Source: an uncultured Alphaproteobacteria bacterium
Lineage (GTDB): Bacteria > Pseudomonadota > Alphaproteobacteria > Sphingomonadales > Sphingomonadaceae
Direction of reading: 5' to 3'
NCBI GenBank assembly: GCA_963777795.1
Contig: CAVZRM010000001.1
Location: 485,460 to 549,459, forward strand
DNA length: 64,000 bases
Below are positions 8,356 to 34,594 of the stretch, piece after piece. Within the stretch, counting starts at the first letter, position 1, and the number at the start of each line of letters is the position of its first letter. The position numbers were made by a program, and so were the translations under genes. The notes under the pieces are model-generated. The model was not told where the DNA came from, searched no databases, and worked only from the letters and a program-made list of their open reading frames with translations.

Positions 8356-10029
8356 GTGGCGGATTTCGACGAGAGCTTCGATTGGGTCGTGATCGGCAGC
8401 GGCGCGGGCTCGATGAGCTCGGCGCTGATGATGCGCAAGGCCGGCAAGACGGTGGTCATCCTGGAAAAGGGCGAGTGGCTGGGCGGGACCACCTGCAAGT
8501 CGGGCGGGGTGATGTGGATCCCCAACAACCCGTTCATGGACCCGGGCGAGGACAGCACCGAACAGGGCATCACCTATCTCGACGCCGTGGTCGGCGATCC
8601 GGCCGATGCGCCGGGCACCTCGCACGAACGACGGCTGACCTATGTCGTCGAAGCGCCGAAAATGGTGAACTTCCTGCTTGGCGAAGGCGTCGAGCTTGAG
8701 CGCGGCTCGCACTTCTGGCCCGACTATTACGATGAGCTGCCGGGTGGCTGCAAGACCAGCCGCACAGTCACCGCAGTGCCGTTCGACAAGCGCGAACTCG
8801 GCGACTGGGAAGCTAAACTGCGCAAGGGCTTCATCGAAGCGCCGGCGCGGCTCGACGACGGCATGAAGTTTCCCTTCATGAAGCATTCGTGGAAGATCAA
8901 GTGGTCGTTCGCCAAGGTCGCCGCCCGGGTCGTGATGGGCAAGCTGACCGGCAAGCACTGGACGACGGCGGGCGCGGCGCTGCAAGGCCGCATGCTCAAG
9001 GCGGCGCTGGCGGCGGGCGCTGATATCCGCACCCGGACCCCGGTCAAGCATGTCATCATCGAGAATGGCCGCGCGCTGGGCGTCGAGGTCGAGCAAGACG
9101 GCAAGCTGCGCCGCATCGGTGCCAGGCTCGGCGTGCTCAACAACGGCGGCGGCTTCTCGCAGAACCAGCCGATGCGTGACAAGTATCAGCCGGGCACCCG
9201 CGTCGAATGGTCGAACGGCATCGAGACCGACATGGGCGACATGCACGTGGAGATGGAGCGGATCGGCGGCACCCTGGCGCAGATGGACGAATTCGTCGGC
9301 TTTCCGGGCACCTGCCCGCCGGGCTGGGATCAGGGCTATATCAAGCCCGGCATGCAGGGCACCACCGCCAAGCCGCACTGCATCCTCGTCGATCAGGCCG
9401 GACAGCGCTATTTCGACGAGGCCTGTTCCTATGAACTCTATTGCGAGACGATGCTCAAGCACCAGGGCGGGGTGCCCAGCTGGGCGGTGTTCGACGACCA
9501 ACTGCTCACCGGATACGGGGTGGGCGGGATCAAGGTCACCCCCAAGGTCAAGGCGCAGTGGCTCGAATGCGGCTACCTCAAGATGGCCGGCACGGTGGAG
9601 GGACTGGCTGCGCTGATCGCTGTCGATCCGGCGACGCTCAAGGCCACGGTCAATCGCTGGAACGGCTTCGTCGACAAGGGCATGGACGAGGATTTCGGGC
9701 GCGGCCAGCGCGCCTATGGCGACTGGCTGGGTGATCCGTTCTTTCCCGGACCGAGCAAATGCCGGGGCAGGATCGACCGGCAGCCCTACTATGCGGTGCA
9801 AGTCATTCCGGGCGACGTCGGCACCTATGGCGGCGTCGTCACCGATTCCAGCGCGCGGGTGCTCGACAGGGCGGGCAAGCCGATCGAAGGTCTCTATGCC
9901 TGCGGTGTCGCCACCGCCTCGCCGATGGGCCGGGTCTATCCCGGCGCGGGGGCCAGTGTCGGCCCGTCGATGACCTTCGGCTGGATTGCTGCCAGGCATG
10001 CCGCCGGTCTCGGCAACCAGGCGCTTTAG
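8356..10029 (+). CDS. FAD-dependent 3-ketosteroid-delta1-dehydrogenase-like oxidoreductase
   Basis: GSGAGS, GGTTCKSGGVMWIPNN, GDVGTYGGVVTD, GLYACG, YPGAGASVG motifs of the KstD/FAD_binding_2 family. Confidence 0.8.
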   Translation: MADFDESFDWVVIGSGAGSMSSALMMRKAGKTVVILEKGEWLGGTTCKSGGVMWIPNNPFMDPGEDSTEQGITYLDAVVGDPADAPGTSHERRLTYVVEAPKMVNFLLGEGVELERGSHFWPDYYDELPGGCKTSRTVTAVPFDKRELGDWEAKLRKGFIEAPARLDDGMKFPFMKHSWKIKWSFAKVAARVVMGKLTGKHWTTAGAALQGRMLKAALAAGADIRTRTPVKHVIIENGRALGVEVEQDGKLRRIGARLGVLNNGGGFSQNQPMRDKYQPGTRVEWSNGIETDMGDMHVEMERIGGTLAQMDEFVGFPGTCPPGWDQGYIKPGMQGTTAKPHCILVDQAGQRYFDEACSYELYCETMLKHQGGVPSWAVFDDQLLTGYGVGGIKVTPKVKAQWLECGYLKMAGTVEGLAALIAVDPATLKATVNRWNGFVDKGMDEDFGRGQRAYGDWLGDPFFPGPSKCRGRIDRQPYYAVQVIPGDVGTYGGVVTDSSARVLDRAGKPIEGLYACGVATASPMGRVYPGAGASVGPSMTFGWIAARHAAGLGNQAL

Positions 10030-10230
10030 TCACGCTGCACGGACAGTGTCTTCGCATGCACAAGGTCACGTTAGCAATTTGTTGGTATCGCTAGGCTTAC
10101 CGAGGGTTGCTAACCGAGCGGTTTGCACTGGCGTGGTGGAATTCGGTTCATAAACAGCTTGAGCCATGCCGTTTCACTGTGTTAACACCTATGCAAATTG
10201 CCATAGCGTTGAGTGACAGGAGTTTCAAAT

Positions 10231-10653
10231 ATGCGTAAGCCAAACGGGGTAGTTGTATCGATTGCGCTACCCTTGCTATTTTTGGCGACTTCAACGCAAG
10301 CTTCCGTTGGTGGCGCTGTGCAAGGGGCTCCCGGAGTTGGCAGCGCGGTTGGCGAACTCTGTCGAGTTAGGGTGATTCGATCAGCATCTGCGGGTGTGTT
10401 TGATCTCACTCGTGAGGTGCTTAAAAGTGGCAAGTGTGTTTGCCGGGTGACCACTGGACCTCGTAGCCAAGGTGGGGCTGCCGAGTCCGCACTGGCTTCG
10501 TTGTTGTTGGGTCGGTCATGCTCTGACGCTCCACTGGCCGCGTCCTCAGCAGCGGGCAGCGGCGGTTTAGCCCCATTTGCGGCCGGTGGCTTGATTGCTG
10601 GGGGCGCGGGTGCGGGTGCGGCTTTCAGTAGCGAAGGATCAGACAGCCCCTAA
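10231..10653 (+). CDS. Small secreted/membrane hypothetical protein (4 Cys, Gly/Ala-rich C-terminal helix)
   Basis: RBS acaggag, signal-peptide-like N-terminus, followed by a strong terminator. Confidence 0.65.
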   Translation: MRKPNGVVVSIALPLLFLATSTQASVGGAVQGAPGVGSAVGELCRVRVIRSASAGVFDLTREVLKSGKCVCRVTTGPRSQGGAAESALASLLLGRSCSDAPLAASSAAGSGGLAPFAAGGLIAGGAGAGAAFSSEGSDSP

Positions 10654-10683
10654 GGATTCGTCATAGCTGCAGGGGTTGGGGAA

Positions 10684-10708
10684 GGGCGGCTTGGGGGCCG
10701 CCTTTTTT
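10684..10708 (+). terminator. Rho-independent terminator
   Basis: ggcggc-ttgggg-gccgcc hairpin followed by tttttt. Confidence 0.7.
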
Positions 10709-10779
10709 GTATTGTCGCCAATTGCAAATCGAACTAAATAGCTTGAGCTCTTCTTTGATTGAGGTTCAAGAACTGAACG

Positions 10780-11157
10780 ATGTCGATAGCCATCAATGAA
10801 TCGGCGTGCGCGGTAACCCGCCTTGGCCGAATGCCGGAACTAATTGAGCTTCAGAAGGTCCGCCTTTATAATCCCAGGCGCACAGTCGCAGTAGTCAATT
10901 TAGCCACAACGGCAATTGTGGGGATTATTTGCTTTATTTATTCTAGTATTGTTGGAAGGCCACAGTATATTGCGGCGTGGACGGTGGGTATTTGGTGTAT
11001 ATACATTCAGTTTTCAGTACGAAAAAAGTCAAAAAATCGAAATCGGTTGCGTAAACGGCAGCACCGCGAAGATTTTATTGTTGGAGTAATCAGCATTATG
11101 CTATTTTTTTATGTTTCAGGAAGTCAGATATACTATATCATTAAGATATTTGACTGA
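10780..11157 (+). CDS. Hypothetical membrane protein (AT-rich)
   Basis: 125-aa ORF with about three hydrophobic segments; no family recognised. Confidence 0.4.
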   Translation: MSIAINESACAVTRLGRMPELIELQKVRLYNPRRTVAVVNLATTAIVGIICFIYSSIVGRPQYIAAWTVGIWCIYIQFSVRKKSKNRNRLRKRQHREDFIVGVISIMLFFYVSGSQIYYIIKIFD

Positions 11158-11162
11158 GTGGC

Positions 11163-11768
11163 TTAGATCAATTTTTTCTGTATAATCCCATTGGAAAATT
11201 TATTCATTAATTGCCGAGTTTTATCGGTTAAATTTACAAAATACCGACGTCTATCTAGATAATCTGGTGCGCGCTCGATGTATCCCCTGCTTTCGAGAAC
11301 CTGAATCCAACGAAGAGCTGTAGTTGGTGGTACGCAGGAAGCCATGCAGACACTGGTCACCGATATGCTCTTGTGATCCCGCTCAGCTGTCATCAGGTCC
11401 AAAAGAATGTCCCAAGCTGGCTCGCCAAACATTTCCTCTTCCTGGAATATGTTGTCGCGAACCCTTCGTATTTTGTATAATGTATTAGCTAAATTGTTTT
11501 GAATTAATGGGCTGACATGCTCTTGTTGAAATCGCCTGAATTTAAGAACTGGCAATTCCTCATAAATGGAAAACGTCCCTGATGCAGATTCAAATTCGTC
11601 GTTATCAGTGATATTTGCCGAGATGCGTTCGGCAGTCTCGATGAGGACTTGAGCTGCTCGGAGTAGATGGCTTACTAGCCGAGGGGATTCTGGGGCTTCT
11701 TCCGAGATGGACCTAATTTTGTCGAGAGTCGCATTGAGGCTGCTCATCCTTAGGCTCACAGCCTTCAC
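11163..11768 (-). CDS. Winged-helix (MarR-like) DNA-binding protein of the sphingomonad type
   Basis: FGEPAWDILLDL...SISVTSVCMASCVPPTTALRWI...DRRRYFVNLT. Confidence 0.8.
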   Translation of the reverse strand: MKAVSLRMSSLNATLDKIRSISEEAPESPRLVSHLLRAAQVLIETAERISANITDNDEFESASGTFSIYEELPVLKFRRFQQEHVSPLIQNNLANTLYKIRRVRDNIFQEEEMFGEPAWDILLDLMTAERDHKSISVTSVCMASCVPPTTALRWIQVLESRGYIERAPDYLDRRRYFVNLTDKTRQLMNKFSNGIIQKKLI

Positions 11769-12055
11769 TCCTCATTGGACGAATCGATTTCACTAGCCCC
11801 TATATTTCCGTGCTTTTTGAACAATTCCAAGACTAATTTTGTGCGATCCTCGTGAGCTAAATCCATTTCGGATATTTCTTCCTCGGACATCGCTTCGGCG
11901 TTCAAGGCGTCAATCGCTGTGGCAACGTACGCTGCGGCGATTTGATACCCCAAGCGGCTCAGAATGCGCTCGCACATCTGAAGGTGCCAAAGCACGGCTA
12001 GGTTCAATCGACCAACATTGGCTGGCTTTGACCTCATCCATATCGCCCTGCGCAA
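11765..12055 (-). CDS. Hypothetical protein, coupled to the winged-helix gene
   Basis: 4-bp overlap with the downstream gene; helical LSRLGYQIAAAYVATAIDAL. Confidence 0.5.
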   Translation of the reverse strand: MRRAIWMRSKPANVGRLNLAVLWHLQMCERILSRLGYQIAAAYVATAIDALNAEAMSEEEISEMDLAHEDRTKLVLELFKKHGNIGASEIDSSNEE

Positions 12056-12107
12056 ATCGAATATGTGGCACTACCTAGTGCCTGCCAGATTGATAGTCGC
12101 ACCGGCC

Positions 12108-12123
12108 TAAACGCCTGATTAAC
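12108..12123. promoter_or_regulatory. CtrA-like box TAAA-N7-TTAAC
   Basis: One mismatch to TTAA-N7-TTAAC; ~55 bp upstream of the 12055 start. Confidence 0.4.
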
Positions 12124-12392
12124 GGAATATTCGGGATATACGTAAGTGATTTTACGGGCCGTCGGGGCAATTTAAATTTGAGCGACCTGGGTATCCACCG
12201 GTGAGCGGCAAGGCTGCCGCCTGGGTCTCAGTTATTAGCTCCTAGCCAATGAGAACTCCTGCCAGCTGAATCGGCGAACTTTCGCCGACAAAGAGAGGAA
12301 TTTGTGCAAATATACGTATAAGTGACAATCTAAATTATATACAAATTATGTGCAACAACCGCCGCATATCAAAAAAATATGCGGGGTGATCT

Positions 12393-13109
12393 GTGCAAAA
12401 ATTGTCTATAAGATCATCGAATGTACAAATCAATTGCGAAAATATATTGCATAAATGCGCAATTGGATTGCGATTTGTTTCCTTAAGGTGTCTGACGTTC
12501 TTCATTTTTGTCATACTTGGAACAATATGTATTTCGGCGTCAGCTTCGGCTGAGCCTGAAGATAGTCGCGTCGGCCGTTTGGTGGCCAGGCTTGAGGCAG
12601 CTAGTCGCTCCATCTGTGAGGTTTCGGAGATTGACGGAAGCCAACTGGCTTGCAGTGTTGAAGTGGCTGTTGTTGAAAGGCGGGACTATAATGCATGGGC
12701 AAGGAATGGAAAAATTTCCGTTACGAGGCACTTGATTGATAGTTCTTCAGACGATGAAGTTGCTTTTGTAGTAGGACATGAAATGGCGCATGTCATGCTT
12801 AATCACAGAGGAAGTTCTATTGCCAATGAACTGTCTGCGGACTACCTATCGGCCAAAATGATGATCGATTCTGGTTTCGATCCGCGAACAGCGAGAGGCG
12901 TTCTGGATAGAATACAGTCAAAGCGGTTGCTGGGATTTCCCTTTTCCTTGCTTTCGCACCCGTCAAATGGCCGGCGAATGAGGGTGATCATGCAGGCACT
13001 CGAGGAACGCAATTCCTCGGTTGAAATCACCAATGATTTGCACTCAGGCGTTGGAGCAGTCGTTAGCAATGACTTTGCTTCGTTGGGCGAGGCACGATCG
13101 CGAAAATGA
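12393..13109 (+). CDS. M48-family zinc metallopeptidase, secreted (start uncertain)
   Basis: YNAWA, DEVAFVVGHEMAH (HExxH), ELSADY, LSHPSNGRR. Confidence 0.8.
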   Translation: MQKLSIRSSNVQINCENILHKCAIGLRFVSLRCLTFFIFVILGTICISASASAEPEDSRVGRLVARLEAASRSICEVSEIDGSQLACSVEVAVVERRDYNAWARNGKISVTRHLIDSSSDDEVAFVVGHEMAHVMLNHRGSSIANELSADYLSAKMMIDSGFDPRTARGVLDRIQSKRLLGFPFSLLSHPSNGRRMRVIMQALEERNSSVEITNDLHSGVGAVVSNDFASLGEARSRK

Positions 13110-23287: not shown

Positions 23288-24856
23288 ATGATAAGTGCCC
23301 GCCAGCCAAGGCGAGGAAGAAGCGTTATCGCAAACTGGTCGAAAGCGATGAAGGCGTACCGCGTTCAGCAGCCAACCGCATGGAAGCGCCATGTCCTGGT
23401 TGCCTCCGTGGTAGCGACTGGCGTGAGCGCCTTCCTGCCCTGGGGGACGATCCGGACGGGTCAGGTGAAAGACGTCGATCGCCGCAAGTCCGCTGCCCAA
23501 CCCGCCGCACCGCCGCTGGATCTAGCGTCACTGGATCCCGGGCTGGCGGCAGCCGGGGATCGCCTTCCGACGGTTGCGATTGCAGCACCGGGCGGTGCTC
23601 TGGCAACACTCGACACCAGCCCGCACGAAGCCGGGCTGCCGCGGGAGCGACTGGCAGCGATGGGGCCAAGCCAGCATTGGCTGGCACCGCCTCCCCCGGA
23701 GCGCAAGCAACCGGCAAGGCCGTCTCCGCGCGCTGCCGCGAGTTCGTTCGTTGAGCTTGCCGACGGTGTGTTCCAGGTCGGCGGCACGCCGGCTGGCGCA
23801 GACGTAACGACCGGCGGCGAGACGGTGGCAATCAAATCGGCAGCGCAGGACGAAGTTCAAGCCCTCACTATGGCGTCGGTCGCGGATGGTTTCCCACCCG
23901 AACCGCAGCGCGATAGTGCCAATCCGGGCCAAGGCTCGGCCTTCGATGCGGCGAATATGGGAAGCGACGGCAATATCGGCGCACCAGGCGCATTTACTCC
24001 ATCGCCAGACGACTTCGCTCTCATGTCCGCGCCGGATGGCACCCCTGTCGAGGTTCCGCGCGATAAGCCGGATTCGGCGGCAGGTTCGGACATCGCCCGG
24101 ATGGTATGGAGCGAGCAGCACTTGCGCGGTGCAGCGGCTGCAACGATTCCGTCGCCGGAAGCCTCGGCTGCGGCGACCGCAGCGGATGGAGCTTCCGGCG
24201 AAGGTCCGCGCGAACGATCCGATCCAGCCGCAGGTTCGGCTGGCGAACCGGTTGATTCAGCCAGCGGTGTCTGGACTGCGCCTGATACCGCCACGCCTCG
24301 ATCAGAAGGTCCCGCCGTGGCGTCCGCTTCGGGCGGTGTCCCGCCTGAAGCGCTGGACGGTATTTCGGGTGCACCCACGCCGCCGGCTATCGATCCGGTG
24401 GAGTGGAGCGTCGAAGACCGCAGCGGTGCATCCGTTGCGCTGGCACCCGTGCCTGACACTGCCGCCTTGCGCGCGGAAACGGACTCGCCCGCAAACGCGC
24501 GGTCCGATCTGGCATGGACCGGCGGTTTCGCAGGGGGGGCCGCGCCCGATGCCGGACCGGGCGGCGTGCAATCGAAGTCATCCTCGCTCCCCGTGCGAAT
24601 CAACGATGTCTGGGTTGGCAATGTGCCGTTCGTGATCGATTCGCGCGATCAACTCTCGGTCAGCGTGGCCGGCTTGCTCGATCTGGTGCGGCCAAGCATG
24701 CCGCTCGACAGGTTCCGGCACCTGCGATCGTCGCGCGCGGCTTCGGGCTATGCCAGTTTCGAAGCGCTCAAAAAGGCAGGGTTTACAGTCAGGTTCGATA
24801 GCGCCACCGACAGCCTGACGCTCTCGGCGCAGACCGGCGGCACCGGACGAGACTGA
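23288..24856 (+). CDS. Hypothetical membrane-anchored Pro/Ala-rich protein with a small folded C-terminal domain
   Basis: 522-aa ORF (alternative start 23349), N-terminal hydrophobic segment, low-complexity middle, C-terminal LPVRINDVWVGNVP...FDSATDSLTL. Confidence 0.55.
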   Translation: MISARQPRRGRSVIANWSKAMKAYRVQQPTAWKRHVLVASVVATGVSAFLPWGTIRTGQVKDVDRRKSAAQPAAPPLDLASLDPGLAAAGDRLPTVAIAAPGGALATLDTSPHEAGLPRERLAAMGPSQHWLAPPPPERKQPARPSPRAAASSFVELADGVFQVGGTPAGADVTTGGETVAIKSAAQDEVQALTMASVADGFPPEPQRDSANPGQGSAFDAANMGSDGNIGAPGAFTPSPDDFALMSAPDGTPVEVPRDKPDSAAGSDIARMVWSEQHLRGAAAATIPSPEASAAATAADGASGEGPRERSDPAAGSAGEPVDSASGVWTAPDTATPRSEGPAVASASGGVPPEALDGISGAPTPPAIDPVEWSVEDRSGASVALAPVPDTAALRAETDSPANARSDLAWTGGFAGGAAPDAGPGGVQSKSSSLPVRINDVWVGNVPFVIDSRDQLSVSVAGLLDLVRPSMPLDRFRHLRSSRAASGYASFEALKKAGFTVRFDSATDSLTLSAQTGGTGRD

Positions 24857-25004
24857 CCCCTCAGGCGGCCAAAGCGCGCGGATTTCGGTCACACCAGCGG
24901 TCTGCGGCGGGTTCCGCCATTCACGGCTATCCGACTCGAAAAATGCACCTCGCGTCGCAAGGTGGTTTATCGCCGCGCTCACAGCCCGGATGCGCCTCTG
25001 GACA

Positions 25005-25020
25005 ATAAGACAAAATTAAC
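25005..25020. promoter_or_regulatory. CtrA-like box ATAA-N7-TTAAC(CAT) upstream of virB1
   Basis: One mismatch to consensus, ~50 bp before the virB1 ATG. Confidence 0.5.
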
Positions 25021-25068
25021 CATGCGCTCGCTACAACTCGGTTGTTCACTTTTTCCCTCGGGGTTTCG

Positions 25069-25671
25069 ATGGTTCGTGCTTGGAAAGTTGCGTGGCTGAT
25101 GGCCGGTCTGGTCCTGTCCACGCCGGCCCACGCCGATGTGATGGAGATCGGGCGGTCGGGCGCGAGCTGGATTGTCGGCGGGCCCGTGGTCTCGGCCACG
25201 AATCCCGCCGCTGCTCCGCTTTCCCCCGCCCAGCTTGCCGACTCCCGGATACAGACCTTCGCGCTGACGGCGACCGCCGGCGTGCCGCCCGAATGGCGCG
25301 CGCGGGTCGCCGAACTTGCGCAGAAATACGATCTCAGTCCGCGGCTTATCGAGGCGCTGGTCTGGCAGGAAAGCCGCTGGAACAAGCTGGCGAGGTCTCC
25401 GGTCGGTGCCCGCGGCCTCACCCAGCTGATGCCCGGCACGGCGCGCATGCTCGGCGTCAATCCCGATGATCCGCATGCCAATCTCGAAGGCGGCGCGCGC
25501 TATCTGCGCATGCAGCTCGATGCCTTCGACGGCGACGTGCTGCTGGCGCTGGCCGCGTACAACGCGGGCCCCAATCGAGTCGTTCGCGCTGGCGGCATTC
25601 CCGCCATTCGCGAGACCAGAAACTACGTCGCGACGATCCTGTCGCGGCTTTCGCAATCGGTGCATCCATGA
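25069..25671 (+). CDS. virB1: Lytic transglycosylase VirB1
   Basis: LVWQESRW, GARGLTQLMPGTA, ALAAYNAGP, ETRNYV; first gene of the virB operon. Confidence 0.85.
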   Translation: MVRAWKVAWLMAGLVLSTPAHADVMEIGRSGASWIVGGPVVSATNPAAAPLSPAQLADSRIQTFALTATAGVPPEWRARVAELAQKYDLSPRLIEALVWQESRWNKLARSPVGARGLTQLMPGTARMLGVNPDDPHANLEGGARYLRMQLDAFDGDVLLALAAYNAGPNRVVRAGGIPAIRETRNYVATILSRLSQSVHP

Positions 25672-25982
25672 AAAACCTGTCCAAGCCTGTTTCCATTCTG
25701 GCCGGAGCCGGATCGCTCATCCTCCCGACGACCGCGAGCGCACAGGCGCTCGATCCTGCCGGCAGCGGACCGATCGTGGCCGCATTGGGCTGGCTCCAGG
25801 GCACGCTGCTCGGCAATGTGGCGACCGCCGTGGCGGTCATGGCGGTGGCGGCGGTGGGCTTCATGATGCTGACCGGACGGCTGAACTGGCGCTTCGGGGC
25901 GACGGTGATCATGGGCTGCTTCATCCTGTTCGGGGCGAGCGCCATCGTCGCGGGCATCCAGCAGGCGGCGGGTGCGGGCTGA
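25668..25982 (+). CDS. virB2: TrbC/VirB2 pilin
   Basis: Signal peptide, two hydrophobic helices, GCFILFGASAIV. Confidence 0.9.
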   Translation: MKNLSKPVSILAGAGSLILPTTASAQALDPAGSGPIVAALGWLQGTLLGNVATAVAVMAVAAVGFMMLTGRLNWRFGATVIMGCFILFGASAIVAGIQQAAGAG

Positions 25983-25995
25983 TCCGGTGGTCGAC

Positions 25996-26271
25996 ATGGT
26001 CCGCTATCCGCTGCACCGGGCGCTGACGCGGCCGCAGATGTTCGCCGGCGTCACCTACAACTTTTTCGTGATCAACGCGGCAGTCACAACCGAGCTGTTC
26101 CTGATCACCAAGAGCTTCTGGGCGCTGCCCGCAGCGCTCGTGATCCATGGTGCAGGCTATCTCGCCTGCCTGCGCGAGCCGCGTGTGTTCGACTTGTGGC
26201 TGACCAAGGTGAGCCGCTGTCCGCGGGTGAAAAACTGGCAGCGCTGGGGGTGCAACAGCTATGCGCCGTGA
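25996..26271 (+). CDS. virB3: VirB3
   Basis: PLHRALTRPQMFAGV, REPRVFDLWL, GCNSYAP. Confidence 0.9.
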   Translation: MVRYPLHRALTRPQMFAGVTYNFFVINAAVTTELFLITKSFWALPAALVIHGAGYLACLREPRVFDLWLTKVSRCPRVKNWQRWGCNSYAP

Positions 26272-28816
26272 AGGAACCAAGAGCATGATCACCGGGCGCA
26301 AGGCCAGCGGTGCCGGCAAGCGGTCGGGGGCAAATTCCTGGGCCGGCAAGGAAGCCTCGGGTGGCGAGCGGCTGCCCTATAGCGCCTTGATCGATCAGAA
26401 CGCCGTGCTGCTGCGCGACGGGTCGGTGATGCTCGGTCTGACAGTGCCGGGGCTGTCGTTCGAGACCGCCGACACTGACGAGCTCAATGCGCACGCGGCC
26501 TTGCGCGAAGTGCTGCTGCGCAGTGCGCTCGATTCGCGCTTCGTGCTGTATCACCACATTGTCCGCCGCAAGGTCGCCGCCGAACTCGAACCGGTGATCG
26601 CCGACCCGCTGTCGGAGCACATTGACGCGCGCTGGTGCGCGCAGCTCTCTGCCGGCACGCTCTACGTCAACGATCAATTCATCACCCTGGTGCGGCGCCC
26701 TGCGCGCGGGCGCGCGGGCTGGGCCGAGCGGTTGTCGCGCCGGATCCGGCGCGGCAACGAGGCGGTCGAGGCCGATCCCTCCGACCTGCGCGCATTGCGG
26801 GCGGCGGCGCAAGCGATGATCGCGGCGCTCGGGCCTTATGGCGCGCGGCTGCTCGGCGATTATGCCGGCGCAGCTGGCACCTGCTCGGAAGTCCTCGAAC
26901 TCCTTTCGGCGCTCTACAATGGCGAGATGCGGCCGGTGCGCCGGCCCGCCGAAGGCACCGACATCGGGGCCATGCTGCCCTACCGGCGGATCAGCTTCGG
27001 CCTCGACGCGCTTGAGCTGCGCGGGGCGGAAGCACGGCCCGAGTTCGCCGCGATGGTCAGTCTCAAGGACTATCCCGAATCGACGGCACCCGGCCTGACC
27101 GACGCGCTGCTGCGCCTGCCGTGCGAACTGGTGCTGTCGGAGAGCTATGCCCCGGCCGACCGCCAGATTGCGCGCGAGCGGATCGATCTTGCGGTACGGC
27201 GTTTGAAGTCGGCTGACGAAGAGGCCATGGCCGAGCGGCGCGAAATGGCCAGCGCGCGCGACGCACTGGGCGTCGGCAGCGTCGGCTTTGGCGATCATCA
27301 CCTTTCGATGCTGGTGCGCGGCGACAGCCTCGAATCGCTCGATGAAGCCTGCGCCGCCTGCGCCGCTGCGTTAGCCGATGCCGGCGCGATAGCGGTTCGC
27401 GAGGACGTCAACCTCGAGCCCGCGTTCTGGGGGCAGTTCCCCGGAAACGAGGCTTTCATCGTGCGCCGTTCGCTGATCTCGTCGGCCAACATGGCCTGCT
27501 TCTCGAGCCTGCACGGCTTTGCCATGGGCAAGGCCTGGGGCAACCACTGGGGCGAGGCGGTGACCTTGCTGCAAACCACCAGCGCGACCCCGTTTTTCTT
27601 CAACTTCCACAACGGCGATCTTGGCAACTTCAGCGTCATCGGACCTTCGGGTTCGGGCAAGACCGTGGTGATGAATTTCCTCGCCTCGCAGGCGCAGAAA
27701 TTCGCGCCGCGCATGGTGCTGTTCGACAAGGATCGGGGTGCCGAAGTGTTCGTGCGCGGCATCGGCGGAGGCTACAGCCGGATCGCGCCGGGTCATCCTA
27801 CCGGGTTCAACCCGCTGGCCATGCCCGACACGCCGGCCAACCGCGCGTTCCTGCGCGACTGGGTGGCGGTGCTGACGCAGGCGGAGGGGCCTGAGGAACT
27901 GGCGATCATCGCCGGGGCGGTCGATGCCGCCTATGCCAATGAACCGCAGCTGCGACGCCTGACCTACTTCCGCGAGCTGCTGGCCGGCTCGCGCCGGCCC
28001 AGGCCGGGCGATCTTGCCAGCCGGCTCGACCCGTGGATTGCGCCCGGTCCCCATGGCGGCACCGGCGGCGAGTACGGCTGGTTGTTCGACAATCGCGTCG
28101 CGGCCGGCGCGCGTGCCGCGAACGGGGGTGAGGGGGGCCAGGACCGGCTCGACCTGAGCGCGCGGGTGCTCGGCTTCGACATGACCGCGCTGCTCGAAAC
28201 CCCGCGCCTGCGCACCCCGGTGATGATGTATCTGTTCCACCGCATCGAGGAACTGCTCGACGGATCACCGGCGATGATCCTGATCGACGAGGGCTGGAAG
28301 GCGCTCGACGACGAGGTGTTCGCCGCGCGCATCCGCGATTGGCTCAAGACCCTGCGCAAGCGCAACGCACTGGTCGGCTTCGCCACCCAGTCGGCGCGCG
28401 ACGCGCTCGACAGCCGGATTTCTACGGCGCTGGTCGAACAGACCGCGACGATGATATTCATGCCCAATGCCCGCGCCCGGCCGGAGGACTACTGCGACGG
28501 CTTCGGACTGACGGCGCATGAGCTCGACATGATCCGCACCCTGCCAGCGCACTCGCGCTGCTTCCTCGTGCGCCAGGCCGATGCCTCGGTGGTGGTGCGG
28601 CTCGACCTGTCGGGCATGCCCGAGGTGCTGACCGTGCTTTCGGGTCGTGAATTGACGGTGCGCAAGCTCGACGCCCTGCGTCAGCAGTATGGCGATGCAC
28701 CGGCTGCCTGGTATCCGCATCTGACCGGCGCGCCATGGCCCGGGGGCAATGAATGGCCCGGAGCCGGATGGACGGCCGCCAACGATGCGCAATCCTGGCC
28801 CGAGGCCGCCGAGTGA
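26261..28816 (+). CDS. virB4: VirB4 ATPase
   Basis: Walker A GPSGSGKT, FDKDRG, IDEGW, RKRN, FATQS. Confidence 0.95.
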   Translation: MRREGTKSMITGRKASGAGKRSGANSWAGKEASGGERLPYSALIDQNAVLLRDGSVMLGLTVPGLSFETADTDELNAHAALREVLLRSALDSRFVLYHHIVRRKVAAELEPVIADPLSEHIDARWCAQLSAGTLYVNDQFITLVRRPARGRAGWAERLSRRIRRGNEAVEADPSDLRALRAAAQAMIAALGPYGARLLGDYAGAAGTCSEVLELLSALYNGEMRPVRRPAEGTDIGAMLPYRRISFGLDALELRGAEARPEFAAMVSLKDYPESTAPGLTDALLRLPCELVLSESYAPADRQIARERIDLAVRRLKSADEEAMAERREMASARDALGVGSVGFGDHHLSMLVRGDSLESLDEACAACAAALADAGAIAVREDVNLEPAFWGQFPGNEAFIVRRSLISSANMACFSSLHGFAMGKAWGNHWGEAVTLLQTTSATPFFFNFHNGDLGNFSVIGPSGSGKTVVMNFLASQAQKFAPRMVLFDKDRGAEVFVRGIGGGYSRIAPGHPTGFNPLAMPDTPANRAFLRDWVAVLTQAEGPEELAIIAGAVDAAYANEPQLRRLTYFRELLAGSRRPRPGDLASRLDPWIAPGPHGGTGGEYGWLFDNRVAAGARAANGGEGGQDRLDLSARVLGFDMTALLETPRLRTPVMMYLFHRIEELLDGSPAMILIDEGWKALDDEVFAARIRDWLKTLRKRNALVGFATQSARDALDSRISTALVEQTATMIFMPNARARPEDYCDGFGLTAHELDMIRTLPAHSRCFLVRQADASVVVRLDLSGMPEVLTVLSGRELTVRKLDALRQQYGDAPAAWYPHLTGAPWPGGNEWPGAGWTAANDAQSWPEAAE

Positions 28817-30006
28817 GCGCCTGTGGCCAGATAGCCGAAGAGGCTTCGCTCGGCGTCGCATCGGCGATGCGCGCAGTCGATTGCCTTTCGGCCGAGATGA
28901 CCGCCACCACCTTCGGGCGGCTGTTCGGCGCGCAGGGTGCCTTGTCGCAGGTTCTCACCATCCTGCTGACGCTGTATATCGCCTTCTTTGCCATATCGCT
29001 CCTCACCGGCCGTTCGCGGCTTGGCATTTCGGCGCTGACACCCCGGGTGCTCACGCTGGGGATGGTGCTGACCTTCGCCACCAGCTGGGCGGCCTACCAG
29101 AGCGTCGTGTGGAATCTCGCGGTGGGCGGGCCCGATCAGCTGGCCGGAATCCTCACCGGCGAAAGCGGCCTGGCCACGCAGATCTTCGCCGAGCGCATCG
29201 ATCTGGTCGTCACCGCGCTATCCGAAACGGCTGCCAGCATCGGTGCCAGCCAGGCAGGCGCAGCCAATGTGCCGGGCGCATCCACGCCGGTGAACCTGCT
29301 GTGGTTCGCCGCACTGCTGTTGATGCTCGGCACCGTCGGGGTGCTGGTGACGGCGCGGATTGCGCTTGCCGGCCTGCTCGCGCTTGGCCCGGTATTCGTC
29401 GTGCTGGCGCTGTTCAAGGGAACCCGCGGACTGTTCGTCGGCTGGCTGCGGGCAGTCGTGCTGACTGCGGTTTCGCCGATGTTCGCGGTGATCGGCGGCA
29501 CCTTCATGCTCAAGCTGGCGGTTCCGGTCATCGCATCATTGCAGGGGGCTGAGGGCTTCGACATCCGCGCGGTGATGGCGCTGTTCCTGATTTCGGCGGT
29601 CCACGTCGCCTTGATGGCGATGATGTTGCGAGTGGTCGGTACAATCGTCGCGGGGTGGAATGTCTTCGGACTGGCCGAGCAGCCGGATACACCGGCTTCG
29701 GCGAGCGCCAGTGCCGCACCGGCTTCCGTGATTGCACCGCTTGCCGTGGCACAAGATTCGCATCGCAGTGGCCGCGCGCCGGTCATTCTGGCGGGCGCGA
29801 CCGCGATGATGGCCAGCGGCCCGCCGCCGCCGCCCGGTTTCGCAGCCGGCAGCGGGCAGCGCAGCTACACACATACGGTTTACGGCAGCGGTGCATACGC
29901 GCCGCCGCTGCGATCGCAGACCAGGCGGGCCCAGGGTGTGGGCAGCGCCTTTCGCAGCAATGCGCACCGGATGGCCCCGCGCCATGTGAAGGAGACCCAA
30001 CGATGA
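28813..30006 (+). CDS. virB6: TrbL/VirB6 inner-membrane protein
   Basis: Multi-TM, LALGPVFVVLALFKGTRGLFVGWLR; GTG overlaps the virB4 stop. Confidence 0.85.
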   Translation: MSACGQIAEEASLGVASAMRAVDCLSAEMTATTFGRLFGAQGALSQVLTILLTLYIAFFAISLLTGRSRLGISALTPRVLTLGMVLTFATSWAAYQSVVWNLAVGGPDQLAGILTGESGLATQIFAERIDLVVTALSETAASIGASQAGAANVPGASTPVNLLWFAALLLMLGTVGVLVTARIALAGLLALGPVFVVLALFKGTRGLFVGWLRAVVLTAVSPMFAVIGGTFMLKLAVPVIASLQGAEGFDIRAVMALFLISAVHVALMAMMLRVVGTIVAGWNVFGLAEQPDTPASASASAAPASVIAPLAVAQDSHRSGRAPVILAGATAMMASGPPPPPGFAAGSGQRSYTHTVYGSGAYAPPLRSQTRRAQGVGSAFRSNAHRMAPRHVKETQR

Positions 30007-30860
30007 TCTGCGGCACCTTTGGCAGAGCGTTGTTGGGCGCTGCCGCGCTCGCCGCCATTGCCGCGCCGGCCAGCGCCGACCAGCGCCTGGTCGAGCGCGT
30101 TTATAGCGAACGCGAAGTCGTCCGCGTCGATGGCAGGATGCACGTCCAGGCGACCATCGTCTTCGGCGACACCGAAACGATCGAGAATGTCGCGGTCGGC
30201 GATGCCCAGTCATGGCAGATTACCCCGAACAAGCGCGCCAACCTGCTGTTCGTGAAACCGCTGAATGCATCGGCACGCACCAACATGACAGTGATCACCG
30301 ATCGCCATCGCTATTTCTTCGATCTGGTCGCCTCGCCGGGAGCGAGGCCGATGTACATGCTGCGCTTTGCTTACAACGATGCTCCGGCTCGTCCCGCATC
30401 GCCCGGCGTGCCGGCGCAACGCGCTCCCGGGGCTTCGTCCGAAGCGCGCATCGCGGCGAATTCCAGCCCCGGCGATCCGGCGACCGATCCATCCCGGTTT
30501 AATTTCGCATGGAAGACCTCGGGCGATTCGCGTCTGCTTCCACAAAGCATCTACGACGATGGCTCGGCCACTTACCTGCTGTGGCACGACAACCAGCCGG
30601 TTCCCGCCATTCTGGTGACCAACGACAAGGGTGACGAAGGTCCGGTCAATTACGCCGTGCGCGGCAGTACGATCGTGATCGCCGATGTGCCAGGCACGCT
30701 GATCCTGCGCCACGGGCGCGCGCGCGCGATCCTGCGCAACGACGGGCGGGGCAAGGCTTCCAATGCCGGGTCGCGTGGCGCTCCGGCGCGTGCGTCGGGG
30801 CAGGGCATTGTCGCCGCGTCGCCGGCCCTATTGACCGCTCCAGGCAAGGCAGGGAACTAG
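30003..30860 (+). CDS. virB9: TrbG/VirB9
   Basis: VAVGDAQSWQI, NLLFVKP, TNMTVITDRHRY, IYDDGSATYL. Confidence 0.9.
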   Translation: MICGTFGRALLGAAALAAIAAPASADQRLVERVYSEREVVRVDGRMHVQATIVFGDTETIENVAVGDAQSWQITPNKRANLLFVKPLNASARTNMTVITDRHRYFFDLVASPGARPMYMLRFAYNDAPARPASPGVPAQRAPGASSEARIAANSSPGDPATDPSRFNFAWKTSGDSRLLPQSIYDDGSATYLLWHDNQPVPAILVTNDKGDEGPVNYAVRGSTIVIADVPGTLILRHGRARAILRNDGRGKASNAGSRGAPARASGQGIVAASPALLTAPGKAGN

Positions 30861-30863
30861 ACC

Positions 30864-31982
30864 ATGGCACCGTCCACCAATTCTCCCCGCCGCTCGCGCT
30901 TCGACGATCATCGCGATCCGCGCGACGAGGGCCACAGTGCCGAGATCATCGACCTTGCCACGCGCAGCGTGCTGCCCCTCGTCAGTCAGCGCAAACGCAG
31001 CGAAGGCTTCGGGCTCGTCGCCGGGATCGCGGTCGTTGCCGCCATGGGGGCGCTCACGCTGTGGTCGCTCGATTCGGCGCGCAACCCCGGGCCGGTCCGC
31101 AAGGCCCCGGTCGCCGCAAGGCCCGCGCCGGCGCAAGCCGCGCTGCCGATGGCCCCGCCCGCAGTTCCACCCGCCGCGATAACGCCGGCCCCCGGCGGGC
31201 TCACCGCGCCGCCGCCGACGGCAGTGCTCGCAGCGCCGCCGCAAGGCGCGGTTTCCGCCGTCCCCGCCGCCGGGCCCAACGCCGTGCCGACCCTGGTGTT
31301 CGATGCCGGGGTCAATTCCGCTCCGATTTCAGCAGGCGCGTCCGTGCCCGGCGCACCGGCCGGCACTGGCAACGCGAACGACGATTTCGCCGCCCGGCTC
31401 ACCGGCGGCACTGGCGGCGGCAAGGCGACCGCATCGGCCAGCTTCGATCCCAGGACGACCGTCACCCAGGGCACGCTGATCCCGGCGGTGCTGGAAACCG
31501 CGATCGACACCGACGTGCCCGGCTACGTCCGCGCGGTGGTCAGCTCCGACGTGCGCAGCTTCGACGGCGCGCGCGTGCTGGTGCCGCGCGCATCGCGGCT
31601 TATCGGCCAGTACAAGAGCGGGCTCACCGCCGGTCAGAAGCGCGCCTATGTCATCTGGACCCGGCTGATCCGGCCCGACGGGGTGTCGGTCAATATCGCC
31701 TCGCCGGCGGTCGCCTTCGGCGGCGAGACGGGGCTCGCCGGCCGGGTCGATTCGCATTTCTTCGCGCGCTTCGGCTCGGCGATGCTGCTCTCGGTGATCG
31801 GCGGGCTGTCGGCGATCGGCGGTACTGCCGGGGTGATAGTCAACGGCGGCGGCCAGTCCGCCGCTGCTGCGGCTGTCGGGCAGAGCGGCCAGATCGGCCC
31901 GACCATCCGCGTGCGCCAGGGCGAGCCGATCCGCGTGTTCACCGCCAAGGACCTCGACTTCTCGAAGGTGGTGACCGAATGA
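30864..31982 (+). CDS. virB10: TrbI/VirB10
   Basis: GTLIPAVLETAIDTDVPG, VIWTRLIRPDG, GRVDSHFFARFG, PTIRVRQG. Confidence 0.95.
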   Translation: MAPSTNSPRRSRFDDHRDPRDEGHSAEIIDLATRSVLPLVSQRKRSEGFGLVAGIAVVAAMGALTLWSLDSARNPGPVRKAPVAARPAPAQAALPMAPPAVPPAAITPAPGGLTAPPPTAVLAAPPQGAVSAVPAAGPNAVPTLVFDAGVNSAPISAGASVPGAPAGTGNANDDFAARLTGGTGGGKATASASFDPRTTVTQGTLIPAVLETAIDTDVPGYVRAVVSSDVRSFDGARVLVPRASRLIGQYKSGLTAGQKRAYVIWTRLIRPDGVSVNIASPAVAFGGETGLAGRVDSHFFARFGSAMLLSVIGGLSAIGGTAGVIVNGGGQSAAAAAVGQSGQIGPTIRVRQGEPIRVFTAKDLDFSKVVTE

Positions 31983-33013
31983 GCGGAACGGTCCATCCGC
32001 TGCTGGCCGACGCGGCGCGCGTGGCAAAGGTTGACGCCGGGTTCGATGCCGGGTTCGATGCCGCACCGGAGCTGCCGCGCAGCGTCTACCTCGAAGCCTA
32101 TCTGGCACCCTTCATGCCCTGGCTCGAACGCGAAGGCGTGACCGAAATCCTGGTCAATCGCCCCGGCGAGTTGTGGATCGAGGATGCGGCGAGCCCCGGC
32201 GGCATGCAGCGCATCGCCGTGCCGCAGATCGACGACGCGCTGCTGCAGCGGCTTGCCGAGCAGGTTGCGCGCAGCACCCATCAGGGGATCAACCGCGAGC
32301 ACCCGCTGCTCTCCGCCACTCTGCCAGGCGGGGCGCGGATCCAGCTTGCCGGGCCGCCCGCCACCCGGCGGCACTGGGCCATGGCGATCCGCCTTCACCG
32401 GCTGGTCGATCTGCGGCTCGATGCCTACGACACCGGAGCCATTGTCGCGCGCGCCGAGCCGCCGATGCCCGACCCGATGGCCCAGCCGATCGCCTATCTG
32501 CGCGAGGCGATTGCCCGGAGGCGCACGATCCTGATTTCCGGCGGTACCTCGACCGGCAAGACCACTTTTCTCAACGCCATGCTGCTCGAAATTCCGCCCG
32601 GCGAGCGCCTCGTCCTGGTCGAGGACACGCCCGAACTCCGGCTGCCGGGCGACAACGGCGTCGGGCTGGTCGCGGTCAAGGGCGAACTGGGCGAAGCGCG
32701 GATCACCGCCAACGACCTGCTCCAGGCAGCCTTGCGCCTGCGCCCCGACCGGATCGTGCTCGGCGAGCTGCGCGGCAGCGAGACGGTCTCGTTCCTGCGC
32801 GCGATCAACACCGGCCACCCGGGCTCGTTCTCCACGGTTCACGCCAATAGCCCGCGCGGTGCGCTCGAGCAGATCGCGCTGATGGCGATGCAGGCCGACA
32901 TCGGCCTGACGCGCTCGGAAACGCTCGACTATGCCGCGACGGTGATCGACGTGGTGGTCCAGCTCGAGCGCCGCGACGGCCAGCGGGTCATCTCGGCGAT
33001 TGCCGAGGTGTGA
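31979..33013 (+). CDS. virB11: VirB11 ATPase
   Basis: TEILVNRPGE, GGTSTGKT, LRLRPDRIVLGELRG, NTGHPGSFSTVHA. Confidence 0.95.
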   Translation: MSGTVHPLLADAARVAKVDAGFDAGFDAAPELPRSVYLEAYLAPFMPWLEREGVTEILVNRPGELWIEDAASPGGMQRIAVPQIDDALLQRLAEQVARSTHQGINREHPLLSATLPGGARIQLAGPPATRRHWAMAIRLHRLVDLRLDAYDTGAIVARAEPPMPDPMAQPIAYLREAIARRRTILISGGTSTGKTTFLNAMLLEIPPGERLVLVEDTPELRLPGDNGVGLVAVKGELGEARITANDLLQAALRLRPDRIVLGELRGSETVSFLRAINTGHPGSFSTVHANSPRGALEQIALMAMQADIGLTRSETLDYAATVIDVVVQLERRDGQRVISAIAEV

Positions 33014-33044
33014 CGGGGTAGTGCGGTGAATCTGTCGTACGTCT

Positions 33045-33356
33045 CCCCTCCCCTTCAGGGGAAGGGCTGGGGGTGGGGCTGTCAGGAAAGCTTGCCATCC
33101 GCGACACCCCCCACCCCAACCCCTCCCCTGAAGGGGAGGGGCTATCGCATATTCACCTCAGCTCTCATTGTTCGTCATCCTGAACTTGTTTCAGGACCCA
33201 TTTCTCGGAACACCCGGAGCGTAGTTTCTGGCAGAAAACCGCGCGGTTTTCGCCTATTCTGCTTGCTTCGGGCTTGCGGCACGATGGGCCCTGAAACAAG
33301 TTCAGGGTGACGAATTTGGGAATATGCGATAGCCCTCCCCTGAAGGGGAGGGGCTC
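33045..33356. repeat. Composite nested REP/MITE cluster (ccctcccc-type palindromes plus a gtcatcctgaacttgtttcagg pair)
   Basis: Palindromes at 33045, 33121, 33334; inverted pair ttcgtcatcctgaacttgtttcagg (33171) / cctgaaacaagttcagggtgacgaa (to 33314) inside the IR gctatcgcatattc / gaatatgcgatagc. Confidence 0.8.
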
Positions 33357-33407
33357 TCCGGAGCCGCGCATAGCCCGGGCCAGATGCTTTCCAACCACCA
33401 AAACCAG

Positions 33408-33440
33408 ACAGCCTCCCCGCCGGTATGGTGGGGAGGCTGT
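33408..33440 (-). terminator. Probable terminator hairpin downstream of the PEP-CTERM gene
   Basis: acagcctcccc ... ggggaggctgt stem. Confidence 0.5.
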
Positions 33441-33546
33441 TGTGTTTGCTCATGCGAGCAATTCGAAGTTCGCTCAATCAAGCGATTTCTTGGCAGGTAT
33501 TCCGAACTGCGCAGCTGGCAAGCCGCGCAATCCGGAGCACCTGGGT

Positions 33547-34254
33547 TCAGCTCATCGCGAAGTTGACGCGGGTCTGAACCTTCGAGCGGCGACGCAGGCC
33601 AAAGCCGATCATGCCGAAGCCCATCATCATCATCGCCCAGGTTGCGGGCTCGGGCAGGGCAGGCTGCCAGTTGCCGACCTGAGCAACCGAACCGTCCTGC
33701 GTGGTATAAGTACCGCCGACATCATAGCCCGTCACGTTGGTGCGGAAGATGTAGGTCGCGGATGTCTGACCGACTGCTTCAAGGCCATTCGCGCCGAAAT
33801 CGGCACGAACCACCGAACCGGAGCCGTTACGCGAAGCGGTCGTGGTCGAAACGCCGGGCTCGCTCAGGTCGAGGTTCGGGTTGCTCGCCGCAGTGAAAAT
33901 GCCCGCGCCATCGGGATCGGCAGCGCTGACCAGCGCATCGACGGTCCAGCCAGCGAAGCTCGACGCCGTCAGGTTGAAGACCTCATCTCCCGCGTTGATC
34001 GCGGTGACCGCGACCTGATAGTAGAAGTCAAGCGTGCCGAGTGTGTTCTTATACACCGCGCTGCGCATGATGTTGGAATAGGTCGGAGTCACGATGAGCG
34101 GTGCCGCGCTGGCCAGCAGCGTGCCCTGCGTCGTGGGGTCGAAGGCCGAAAAGGCGACCCCAGTCGCACCATTGACCAGAATGGTGGCATTGGCTGCCGG
34201 GGCAATCGCCAAGGCGGAAGCGGTTGCGGCTAAGGCGAGTAACTTGCGATTCAT
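33547..34254 (-). CDS. PEPxxWA-CTERM sorting-domain surface protein
   Basis: Signal peptide; C-terminal LPEPATWAMMMMGFGMIGFGLRRR. Confidence 0.9.
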   Translation of the reverse strand: MNRKLLALAATASALAIAPAANATILVNGATGVAFSAFDPTTQGTLLASAAPLIVTPTYSNIMRSAVYKNTLGTLDFYYQVAVTAINAGDEVFNLTASSFAGWTVDALVSAADPDGAGIFTAASNPNLDLSEPGVSTTTASRNGSGSVVRADFGANGLEAVGQTSATYIFRTNVTGYDVGGTYTTQDGSVAQVGNWQPALPEPATWAMMMMGFGMIGFGLRRRSKVQTRVNFAMS

Positions 34255-34399: not shown

Positions 34400-34594
34400 C
34401 CGGATGGCTGAATCTTGGCAACCCCTTTCCGATGATGGTTAATGCCGGATAATGCACGTTAAAATTGCTCTCGCATGCCGAATTTCCCACGAAAATCCGC
34501 CAATCGAGGATCGGGCTAGCCGAGGATTGTTTCAATTTGGGATTCTGCTGTTGGAAAATTCTGGCGGTGCTGACCGGTCTGGCAGGTGTCGAGG

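Follow-up and report, generated by a model that had tools for sequence, protein, structure and literature searches.

A chromosomal VirB/Trw-type secretion operon of the Sphingomonadales without VirB5, VirB7, VirB8 or VirD4 at its locus, and its putative Pho-box and CtrA-type promoters

VirB8 is treated as a near-universal subunit of type IV secretion systems (T4SSs), and those of the VirB type are normally expected to include VirB5 and VirB7. In current cryo-electron microscopy models, VirB8 makes up the periplasmic arches and contributes to the inner-membrane complex, and VirB5 is the stalk tip from which the pilus nucleates. Here we describe an eight-gene T4SS operon, virB1-B2-B3-B4-B6-B9-B10-B11, on the forward strand (25070-33013) of a 64,000-nucleotide (nt) stretch of a contig from an uncultured alphaproteobacterium of the Sphingomonadaceae (GCA_963777795.1), hereafter referred to as the window. 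R388 Trw, pKM101 Tra and Agrobacterium VirB-D4 carry homologous B1, B2, B3, B4, B6, B9, B10 and B11 genes in the same order; compared to these systems, the window locus lacks VirB5 (the stalk tip), VirB7 (the outer-membrane lipoprotein), VirB8 (the periplasmic arches and inner-membrane tails), VirD4 and a relaxase. The operon has been inherited vertically, is fixed on the chromosome, and belongs to a Sphingomonadales-wide family of minimal VirB/Trw-type (mating-pair formation class T, MPF-T) systems. The loci of this family are without VirB5, VirB7, VirB8 and VirD4/relaxase, and the genes that they retain are under strong purifying selection.

Each of the eight genes has a Pfam match, with which the NCBIfam assignments agree, and none contains an internal stop codon. 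virB1 (25070-25671) encodes a lytic transglycosylase (PF01464, SLT, E = 1.2e-24) with a signal peptide and the catalytic E-S motif; its ATG at 25070 is a likelier start than the TTG at 25042, as it yields the signal peptide also found in relatives. It is followed by the pilin gene virB2 (25668-25982; PF04956, TrbC/VirB2, 1.7e-16), whose product has a signal peptide and two hydrophobic helices, virB3 (25972-26271; PF05101, 2.1e-28), the ATPase gene virB4 (26261-28816; PF03135, 2e-42), virB6 with a GTG start overlapping the virB4 stop (28813-30006; PF04610, TrbL/VirB6, 7.5e-33), virB9 (30003-30860; PF03524, CagX, 3.9e-47), encoding a signal peptide and both the N- and C-terminal domains, virB10 (30864-31982; PF03743, TrbI, 1.7e-48; NF038091, 193.5 bits), and the ATPase gene virB11 (31979-33013; PF00437, T2SSE, 8.1e-34), which at 295.8 bits exceeds the TIGR02788 cut-off of 249.95. 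The best solved-structure matches were R388 TrwK for VirB4 (E = 8e-117), TrwF for VirB9 (1.4e-16 over residues 14-258) and TrwI for VirB6 (0.002). The Walker motifs of VirB4 (GPSGSGKT and MILIDE) and VirB11 (GGTSTGKT and IVLGE, together with a His box) and the catalytic Glu of VirB1 are intact. The locus therefore combines in one operon the VirB4 ATPase with VirB2, B3, B6, B9, B10 and B11, as expected of a type IVA (MPF-T) system, and is without the VirB8, VirB5 and VirB7 also expected of that type. Because VirB9 (170.7 bits) and VirB10 fall below their NCBIfam equivalog cut-offs (217.7 and 220 bits respectively), the system appears to represent a divergent subfamily; VirB10 is also matched weakly by the ComB10 model NF038092.

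The genes are packed so tightly that no further component fits between them, as an earlier note based on the sequence had claimed along with the integrity of all genes. Stop and start codons are shared at the B1/B2 (ATGA at 25668), B4/B6 (GTGA at 28813) and B6/B9 junctions (ATGA at 30003, preceded by an AAGGAG ribosome site), the B2/B3 and B3/B4 junctions overlap by 11 nt each, B10 and B11 overlap at 31979, and B9 and B10 are separated by 3 nt. As no gap exceeds 3 nt and no open reading frame (ORF) of the operon is left unassigned, a hidden VirB5 (~220 amino acids, aa), VirB7 or VirB8 (~230 aa) is excluded from it. The missing parts are not found nearby either. None of the ORFs examined with Pfam throughout the window matched a coupling protein, relaxase, integrase or transposase, tRNA and Rfam scans of the window gave no match, and tblastn of the window with VirD4, two VirB8 proteins and a VirB5-like protein, all from annotated plasmids, gave a best E-value of 0.024, in agreement with the earlier note, which had seen no coupling protein, relaxase or integrase in the vicinity. 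In these scans of the window, the features by which a conjugative element would be recognized near a T4SS (coupling protein, relaxase, integrase, att site) are absent. Nor did VirD4, VirB8 or VirB5 have any significant tblastn match within 10 kb on either side of the operon in 80 related loci.

These loci were taken from a VirB4 scan with one genome per species, which returned at least 498 relatives, the best 80 of which were analyzed. All belong to Sphingomonadales (among them Novosphingobium, Erythrobacter, Qipengyuania, Tsuneonella, Croceicoccus and Sphingobium) save one from Phenylobacterium, and their VirB4 proteins are 70-79% identical. Every locus keeps B2-B3-B4-B6-B9-B10-B11, and only a single sub-group within Novosphingobium is without B1. 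The most conserved subunit is VirB2, with 70-96% identity across the order and dN/dS (the ratio of nonsynonymous to synonymous substitution rates) of 0.00-0.19 in orthologue pairs. The compact spacing is conserved as well: from the end of B4 to the start of B6 the median distance is 11 nt and the maximum 239 nt (83 loci), compared to 57 nt in a plasmid of Sphingomonas aerolata and 2045 nt in a Bosea plasmid; from the start of B6 to the start of B9 it is 1148-1379 nt (81 loci), compared to 2771 and 1906 nt in the same two plasmids, which served as VirB8-bearing outgroups for this spacing. The flanks of the relatives are chromosomal and syntenic, with a TonB-dependent receptor, a 532-aa lipoprotein, ppx, ppk, and a small gene for a tetratricopeptide repeat (TPR) protein.

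Plasmid-borne systems are only distantly related. Among 72,556 plasmids searched, the best VirB4 match was 52.8% identical (S. aerolata PDD-32b-11, NZ_CP098765.1), and all others reached 43% at most. In a FastTree phylogeny of concatenated VirB4, VirB9, VirB10 and VirB11, built from translations of the high-scoring segment pairs, the compact chromosomal systems form one clade separated from the plasmid systems by a long branch. In every orthologue pair, among them the window against its closest relatives (L088, L084, L087), each of the eight genes had a dN/dS of 0.00-0.32. Plasmid divergence, a single clade and low dN/dS argue that the operon is neither decaying nor part of a recent integrative and conjugative element (ICE). 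The survey of Sphingomonadales and the dN/dS check that the earlier note had proposed thus find the compact operon in more than 80 chromosomes, with purifying selection throughout, and uphold its description of a domesticated chromosomal system without conjugation genes nearby; decay or confinement to an ICE, which it had named as grounds for refutation, is not seen, as the ORFs are intact, the flanks of the relatives chromosomal and syntenic, and the tested ORFs of the window free of integrases. Higher values (~0.5, for B2 and B6) occur only between two near-identical, inverted copies of the operon lying ~118 kb apart on chromosome 1 of Novosphingobium sp. BL-52-GroH (L013 and L014). The two copies differ mainly in VirB2 and VirB6, and one of them lacks both the TPR gene and the Pho box described below.

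Members of this family have probably been seen before. In a table of Persson et al. (2009), Erythrobacter litoralis HTCC2594 and Erythrobacter sp. NAP1 have T4SSs marked by the footnote "Lacks VirB8" (PMC2702493), and both systems are probably of the same family as the window operon. That footnote covers VirB8 only, and says nothing on the loss of VirB5, VirB7 or VirD4, nor on conservation, regulation or function. A review from 2025 speaks of T4SSs without VirB8 solely in the context of mycoplasma ICEs (PMC12857230). Apart from the footnote, we found no study in the literature on this family, its regulation or its function.

Two proteins at the window had been put forward in the earlier note as substitutes for VirB8, and neither has withstood structural analysis. 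VirB6 is ~100 aa longer than usual and consists of a helical core (residues 1-290), highly conserved among 119 homologues, and a disordered tail of ~100 aa that is variable except for a C-terminal R-A-x-G-x-G-S-x-F-R motif. In an AlphaFold model based on 55 sequences the core is confidently helical, pLDDT is below 50 over most of residues 297-388, and no domain resembling NTF2 is formed; with the tail predicted to be disordered, it was ruled out as a VirB8 surrogate. The motif near the end of the tail (29923-29952 in the window, residues ~371-380) and an invariant pair of cysteines, C4 and C24, in the N-terminal segment are candidate interaction sites. The other protein is encoded upstream of the operon by an ORF of 522 aa opening at 23288 (forward strand; the conserved start is probably M21, giving 23348-24856). 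It has no Pfam or NCBIfam match, and is composed of an N-terminal transmembrane helix, a disordered Pro/Ala-rich linker of ~380 aa, and a conserved C-terminal domain of ~85 aa. A search of 5.8e9 proteins yielded just three homologues, each encoded ahead of this T4SS in the sub-clade of the window. The C-terminal domain (AlphaFold2 pLDDT 70-78) has as its top Foldseek matches the N-domains of the FimD/Caf1A ushers, weakly so (E = 0.014, TM-score 0.42-0.55), and does not resemble NTF2, hence its rejection as a VirB8 surrogate. VirB8 is missing family-wide, yet this protein occurs on four contigs only, so it cannot be what replaces VirB8 in general.

In most of the family, the operon promoter carries a sequence with the architecture of a Pho box. 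The pattern GTCA[CT]-N5-TGTCA[CT], i.e., two TGTCA repeats with an 11-bp period, lies 15-175 nt upstream of the first operon gene on the same strand in 66 of the 79 related loci (e.g., at ~8675 in L010 and ~9238 in L001), and has only 20 other matches on both strands of the 1.53 Mb of loci. In about ten loci, a box of the same kind stands upstream of a gene for a PhoB-like response regulator adjoining a metallophosphoesterase/glycosyltransferase (GT4) pair that resembles plcP-agt, which is a Pho-regulated lipid-remodelling pair in Erythrobacter NAP1 (PMC4796936). Promoter sequence and neighborhood together imply that the ancestral operon promoter was of the Pho-box type and induced by phosphate starvation. 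The PhoB-like regulator (L001: 2290-3040), ~7.7 kb upstream of virB4, scores 147 bits against TIGR02154 (cut-off 296) and has a degenerate acidic pocket; its gene, preceded by three phased TGTCA repeats, is divergent from the metallophosphoesterase and GT4 pair. In 59 loci, among both Novosphingobium and Erythrobacteraceae, the small secreted TPR protein mentioned above (~124 aa; L001: 8664-9038) is encoded immediately ahead of the Pho box and the T4SS, on their strand; neither the window nor the rest of its sub-clade has this protein, which may act in assembly. One soil metatranscriptome yielded a 7.9-kb contig (97% identity to N. resinovorum; L025: 8753-16680) that runs from part of the TPR gene through virB11 and ends at a repeat. 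It is compatible with a single polycistronic transcript but is not proof of one, and DNA carry-over is possible. The other runs matching N. resinovorum gave Logan contigs of flat, genome-like depth, which are uninformative on expression.

The window itself has no Pho box, even with a loosened pattern, and a GACAA-N3-GACAA repeat in its promoter, considered as a residual Pho box, was rejected as having the wrong period and not being conserved. virB1 is preceded by the CtrA-type box ATAA-GACAAAA-TTAACCAT (25005-25023, forward strand), 47 nt before the probable ATG, as the earlier note had read it. The box contains a perfect 8-mer TTAACCAT (25016-25023), and matches 8 of the 9 positions of TTAA-N7-TTAAC (25005-25020). 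A CtrA 8-mer motif equal to TTAACCAT was reportedly described in Caulobacter by Laub et al. in 2002, and on this likeness CtrA is the best candidate factor for the window box. Just 3' of the box is GCTACAAC (25030-25037, forward strand), a -10-like element of the alphaproteobacterial GCTANAWC type with a putative promoter role, which is partly conserved in the sub-clade as GCTAAGAC or GGTAAGAC. A sigma-70 consensus scan of 24.7-34.7 kb found no promoter, but this consensus does not cover alphaproteobacterial promoter types. The hairpin CACCTCGCGTCGCAAGGTG (24946-24964, listed on the forward strand and scored by the scan on the minus strand), located after the 23288 gene and conserved in L090, probably separates this upstream gene from the T4SS transcription unit.

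The sub-clade of the window comprises contigs (L084, L087 and L088/L090) whose VirB6 and VirB4 are 72-74% and 86-88% identical to those of the window respectively. At the same distance from virB1, the box reads GGACAATAAGACAAAATTAACCATG in the window and L090, CCAATAAGACTTAATTAACCATG in L084 (also given as ATAAGACTTAATTAACCAT), and TTAGGATAAAATTAACCTT in L087; all four sub-clade contigs keep it, and no other part of the intergenic region, which has otherwise diverged, is as well conserved. Elsewhere in the family, 1.5 Mb of loci contain TTAACCAT just five times, and three of these copies are at the operon promoter, beside a degenerate Pho box in L079 and L080 and upstream of the Pho box in L023; the other 76 of the 79 operon promoters are without it. 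Because the sub-clade is nested among Pho-box lineages in the FastTree phylogeny, and because most of the family has no such box and a Pho-like repeat in its place, the CtrA-type box is best read as derived and control through it as a rewiring. The proposal of CtrA control made in the earlier note therefore stands only in part: the box is conserved in the four sub-clade contigs, whereas most of the family (66 of 79 loci) has the Pho-like repeat at that place. Within the window, TTAACCAT occurs twice, against 0.32 expected. The second copy (34435-34442, minus strand) is ~180 nt upstream of, and in the same orientation as, a PEP-CTERM protein gene that converges on the operon, and at the equivalent position L087 carries TTAACCTT. 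These putative sites suggest that the operon and the neighboring PEP-CTERM gene are co-regulated.

We consider it fairly probable that the family works as a VirD4-independent, non-conjugative minimal T4SS that moves a substrate between the periplasm and the exterior. By homology to R388 Trw, VirB9 and VirB10 would form the outer-membrane core, and VirB3, VirB4 and VirB6 the inner-membrane platform, with VirB4 and VirB11 as motors. Since VirB5 is missing and VirB2 is the most conserved subunit, the VirB2 polymer would be a short internal stalk or pseudopilus and not a tipped adhesive pilus. Without a coupling protein, neither relaxase-bound DNA nor VirD4-dependent effectors would be taken in from the cytoplasm, so the substrate would most likely pass between periplasm and outside, by export as in the Ptl system of Bordetella pertussis or by import as in the ComB system of Helicobacter pylori. 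Ancestrally, transcription would start from the Pho-box-type promoter, and the operon would accordingly be induced by phosphate starvation, which suggests a role in phosphorus scavenging, through export of a scavenging factor or uptake of DNA; any specific cargo is nonetheless a doubtful assignment at best. In the sub-clade of the window, the operon would have been relocated beside a locus for PEP-CTERM proteins and exopolysaccharide (EPS), the Pho box replaced by a CtrA-type box overlapping the -35 region, and the operon probably switched on by CtrA alongside other surface and developmental functions.

Other explanations of the operon were weighed against this minimal T4SS. That it is a functionless, decaying remnant of an integrated conjugative element is very improbable and largely refuted: four components and all transfer genes have been lost from the locus, and insertion sequence (IS) elements lie beside the operon in L084, but all eight ORFs with their catalytic motifs are intact in the window and its relatives, the low dN/dS and the conserved promoter boxes speak of selection, and among the tested ORFs and scans of the window there is no integrase, transposase or att-type tRNA. 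A canonical function in conjugation or effector delivery, with VirB5, VirB7, VirB8 and VirD4 encoded elsewhere or borrowed from the T4SS of a plasmid or ICE, seems unlikely. Sphingomonads often carry plasmid T4SSs that bear VirB8, and the Erythrobacter systems were flagged as without VirB8 only, not as without VirD4 (PMC2702493). Yet that marine genome screen, based on PF04335, did list the T4SSs of HTCC2594 and NAP1 as without VirB8 (PMC2702493), the missing genes are not within 10 kb of the operon at any locus, and the compact operon is kept in more than 80 species, whatever their likely plasmid content. Moreover, the nearest VirB8-bearing system is only ~53% identical in VirB4, which makes cross-fitting subunits unlikely. 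Like Bartonella Trw, the machine could instead build an adhesive T-pilus that serves attachment or the formation of biofilms. Retention of the VirB2 pilin, VirB1 and VirB11 would fit this, as would the CtrA-type box and the position of the sub-clade operon beside PEP-CTERM/EPS genes that share its 8-mer. We regard this too as improbable, since a VirB5 tip or adhesin protein is missing, VirB2 is up to 96% identical across genera under strong constraint, unlike a surface-exposed adhesin, and the EPS linkage is absent from the rest of the family.

As for the promoter, TTAACCAT might not be a CtrA site at all: it could be just the -35-like element of some promoter, housekeeping or otherwise, or be bound by a different regulator, and the operon would then not be under cell-cycle control. 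This option has a modest chance: the upstream half-site is degenerate (ATAA or TTAG), L087 has TTAACCTT, and most of the family is without the box. Against it stand the identity of the 8-mer with the Caulobacter motif mentioned above, the conservation of the box within the intergenic region and its regain at the same promoter in other lineages, and the fact that the one further copy in the window falls into the promoter region of the neighboring PEP-CTERM gene.

Several points weigh against the preferred reading of a VirD4-independent minimal T4SS under Pho-type and, in the window, CtrA-type control. To our knowledge, VirB8 is essential in every VirB-type system studied, and a working machine without it would be unprecedented. 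The missing parts may be supplied from elsewhere in the genome, and no candidate cargo gene is evident at the window or the related loci. The upstream half of the putative CtrA site is imperfect (ATAA), TTAACC could simply serve as a -35 element, and the Pho-box assignment draws on sequence and neighborhood only. The most far-reaching version of this reading is tentative, namely that the family is a new functional class of T4SS, present order-wide, working without VirB8 arches, VirB5 tip, VirB7 and coupling protein, having a physiological role such as moving DNA or a phosphorus-scavenging factor, and repeatedly switched from PhoB to CtrA control. A family without VirB8, VirB5, VirB7 and a coupling protein at its locus, yet selected across an order, would define the true minimal VirB machine, provide a natural test of the purpose of the arches, the tip and the lipoprotein, and point to a T4SS function outside conjugation and the targeting of hosts or bacteria. 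The promoter pattern, with a Pho box in most lineages and a CtrA-type box in some, makes this function testable, and the family is also a clear example of how the control of a single operon has been rewired.

The surroundings of the operon in the window differ from those in the rest of the family. Upstream are carotenoid genes followed by the Pro/Ala-rich ORF (23288-24856). The space after virB11 is filled by non-coding inverted repeats that resemble repetitive extragenic palindromes or miniature inverted-repeat transposable elements (33045-33141 and 33171-33314, with arms of 39 and 50 nt), and a 16-bp hairpin follows (33407-33441); the ORFs called at 33026-33310 and 33307-34233 are artefacts of this repeat DNA. 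Then comes the convergent PEP-CTERM gene (33547-34254, minus strand; PF07589, 1.3e-7), which is also the neighbor in L084, L087 and L088, and beyond it a large EPS/exosortase locus. The sub-clade shares this context, with the usher-N-like protein upstream and the PEP-CTERM gene downstream, followed by EPS genes where the contig reaches. Elsewhere in the family the ancestral neighbors are the TonB receptor, ppx/ppk and, in some loci, plcP-agt, without any EPS linkage; the association with EPS and PEP-CTERM genes, to which the earlier note had tied one of the roles it proposed (secretion), is therefore specific to the sub-clade of the window and not a property of the machine. The TonB receptor, the lipoprotein, the TPR protein, the PhoB-like regulator, ppx and ppk have no real counterpart in the window, where the only tblastn match was a weak GT4 one (29% identity, E = 1.7e-7). 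IS elements with DDE transposases lie on the upstream side of the T4SS in L084 (470-2087 and 4769-5587), and fit a relocation of the operon in the lineage of the window. A further stretch of the window (10000-13000) has low GC content (49-58% compared to ~66%), with small uncharacterised ORFs, a MarR-like regulator and an M48 peptidase, and without mobile-element genes.

Among known systems, Ptl of B. pertussis is also chromosomal and without VirD4 and VirB5, keeps VirB4, VirB11 and VirB2/3/6/9/10, and provides a precedent for the export of a periplasmic substrate. Ptl, however, retains VirB7 (PtlI) and VirB8 (PtlE), has no VirB1 and shares a transcript with the genes for its cargo, whereas no cargo gene is evident at the window, so that the window composition equals Ptl minus PtlI and PtlE plus VirB1. 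ComB of H. pylori is likewise independent of VirD4 and without VirB5, and moves a substrate between outside and periplasm, importing DNA. Its parts include ComB7 and ComB8 but neither VirB11 nor VirB1, while the window shows the reverse for B8 and B11 and thus differs from a ComB system. The nearest plasmid relative found, the T4SS of S. aerolata PDD-32b-11 (L082), has the same gene order, but a gene annotated as VirB8/TrbF separates its VirB6 region from VirB9, and it has neither a Pho nor a CtrA box. Compared to R388, pKM101 and Agrobacterium, the window family is further set apart by its chromosomal, conserved syntenic position and by a VirB6 with a disordered C-terminal tail of ~100 aa.

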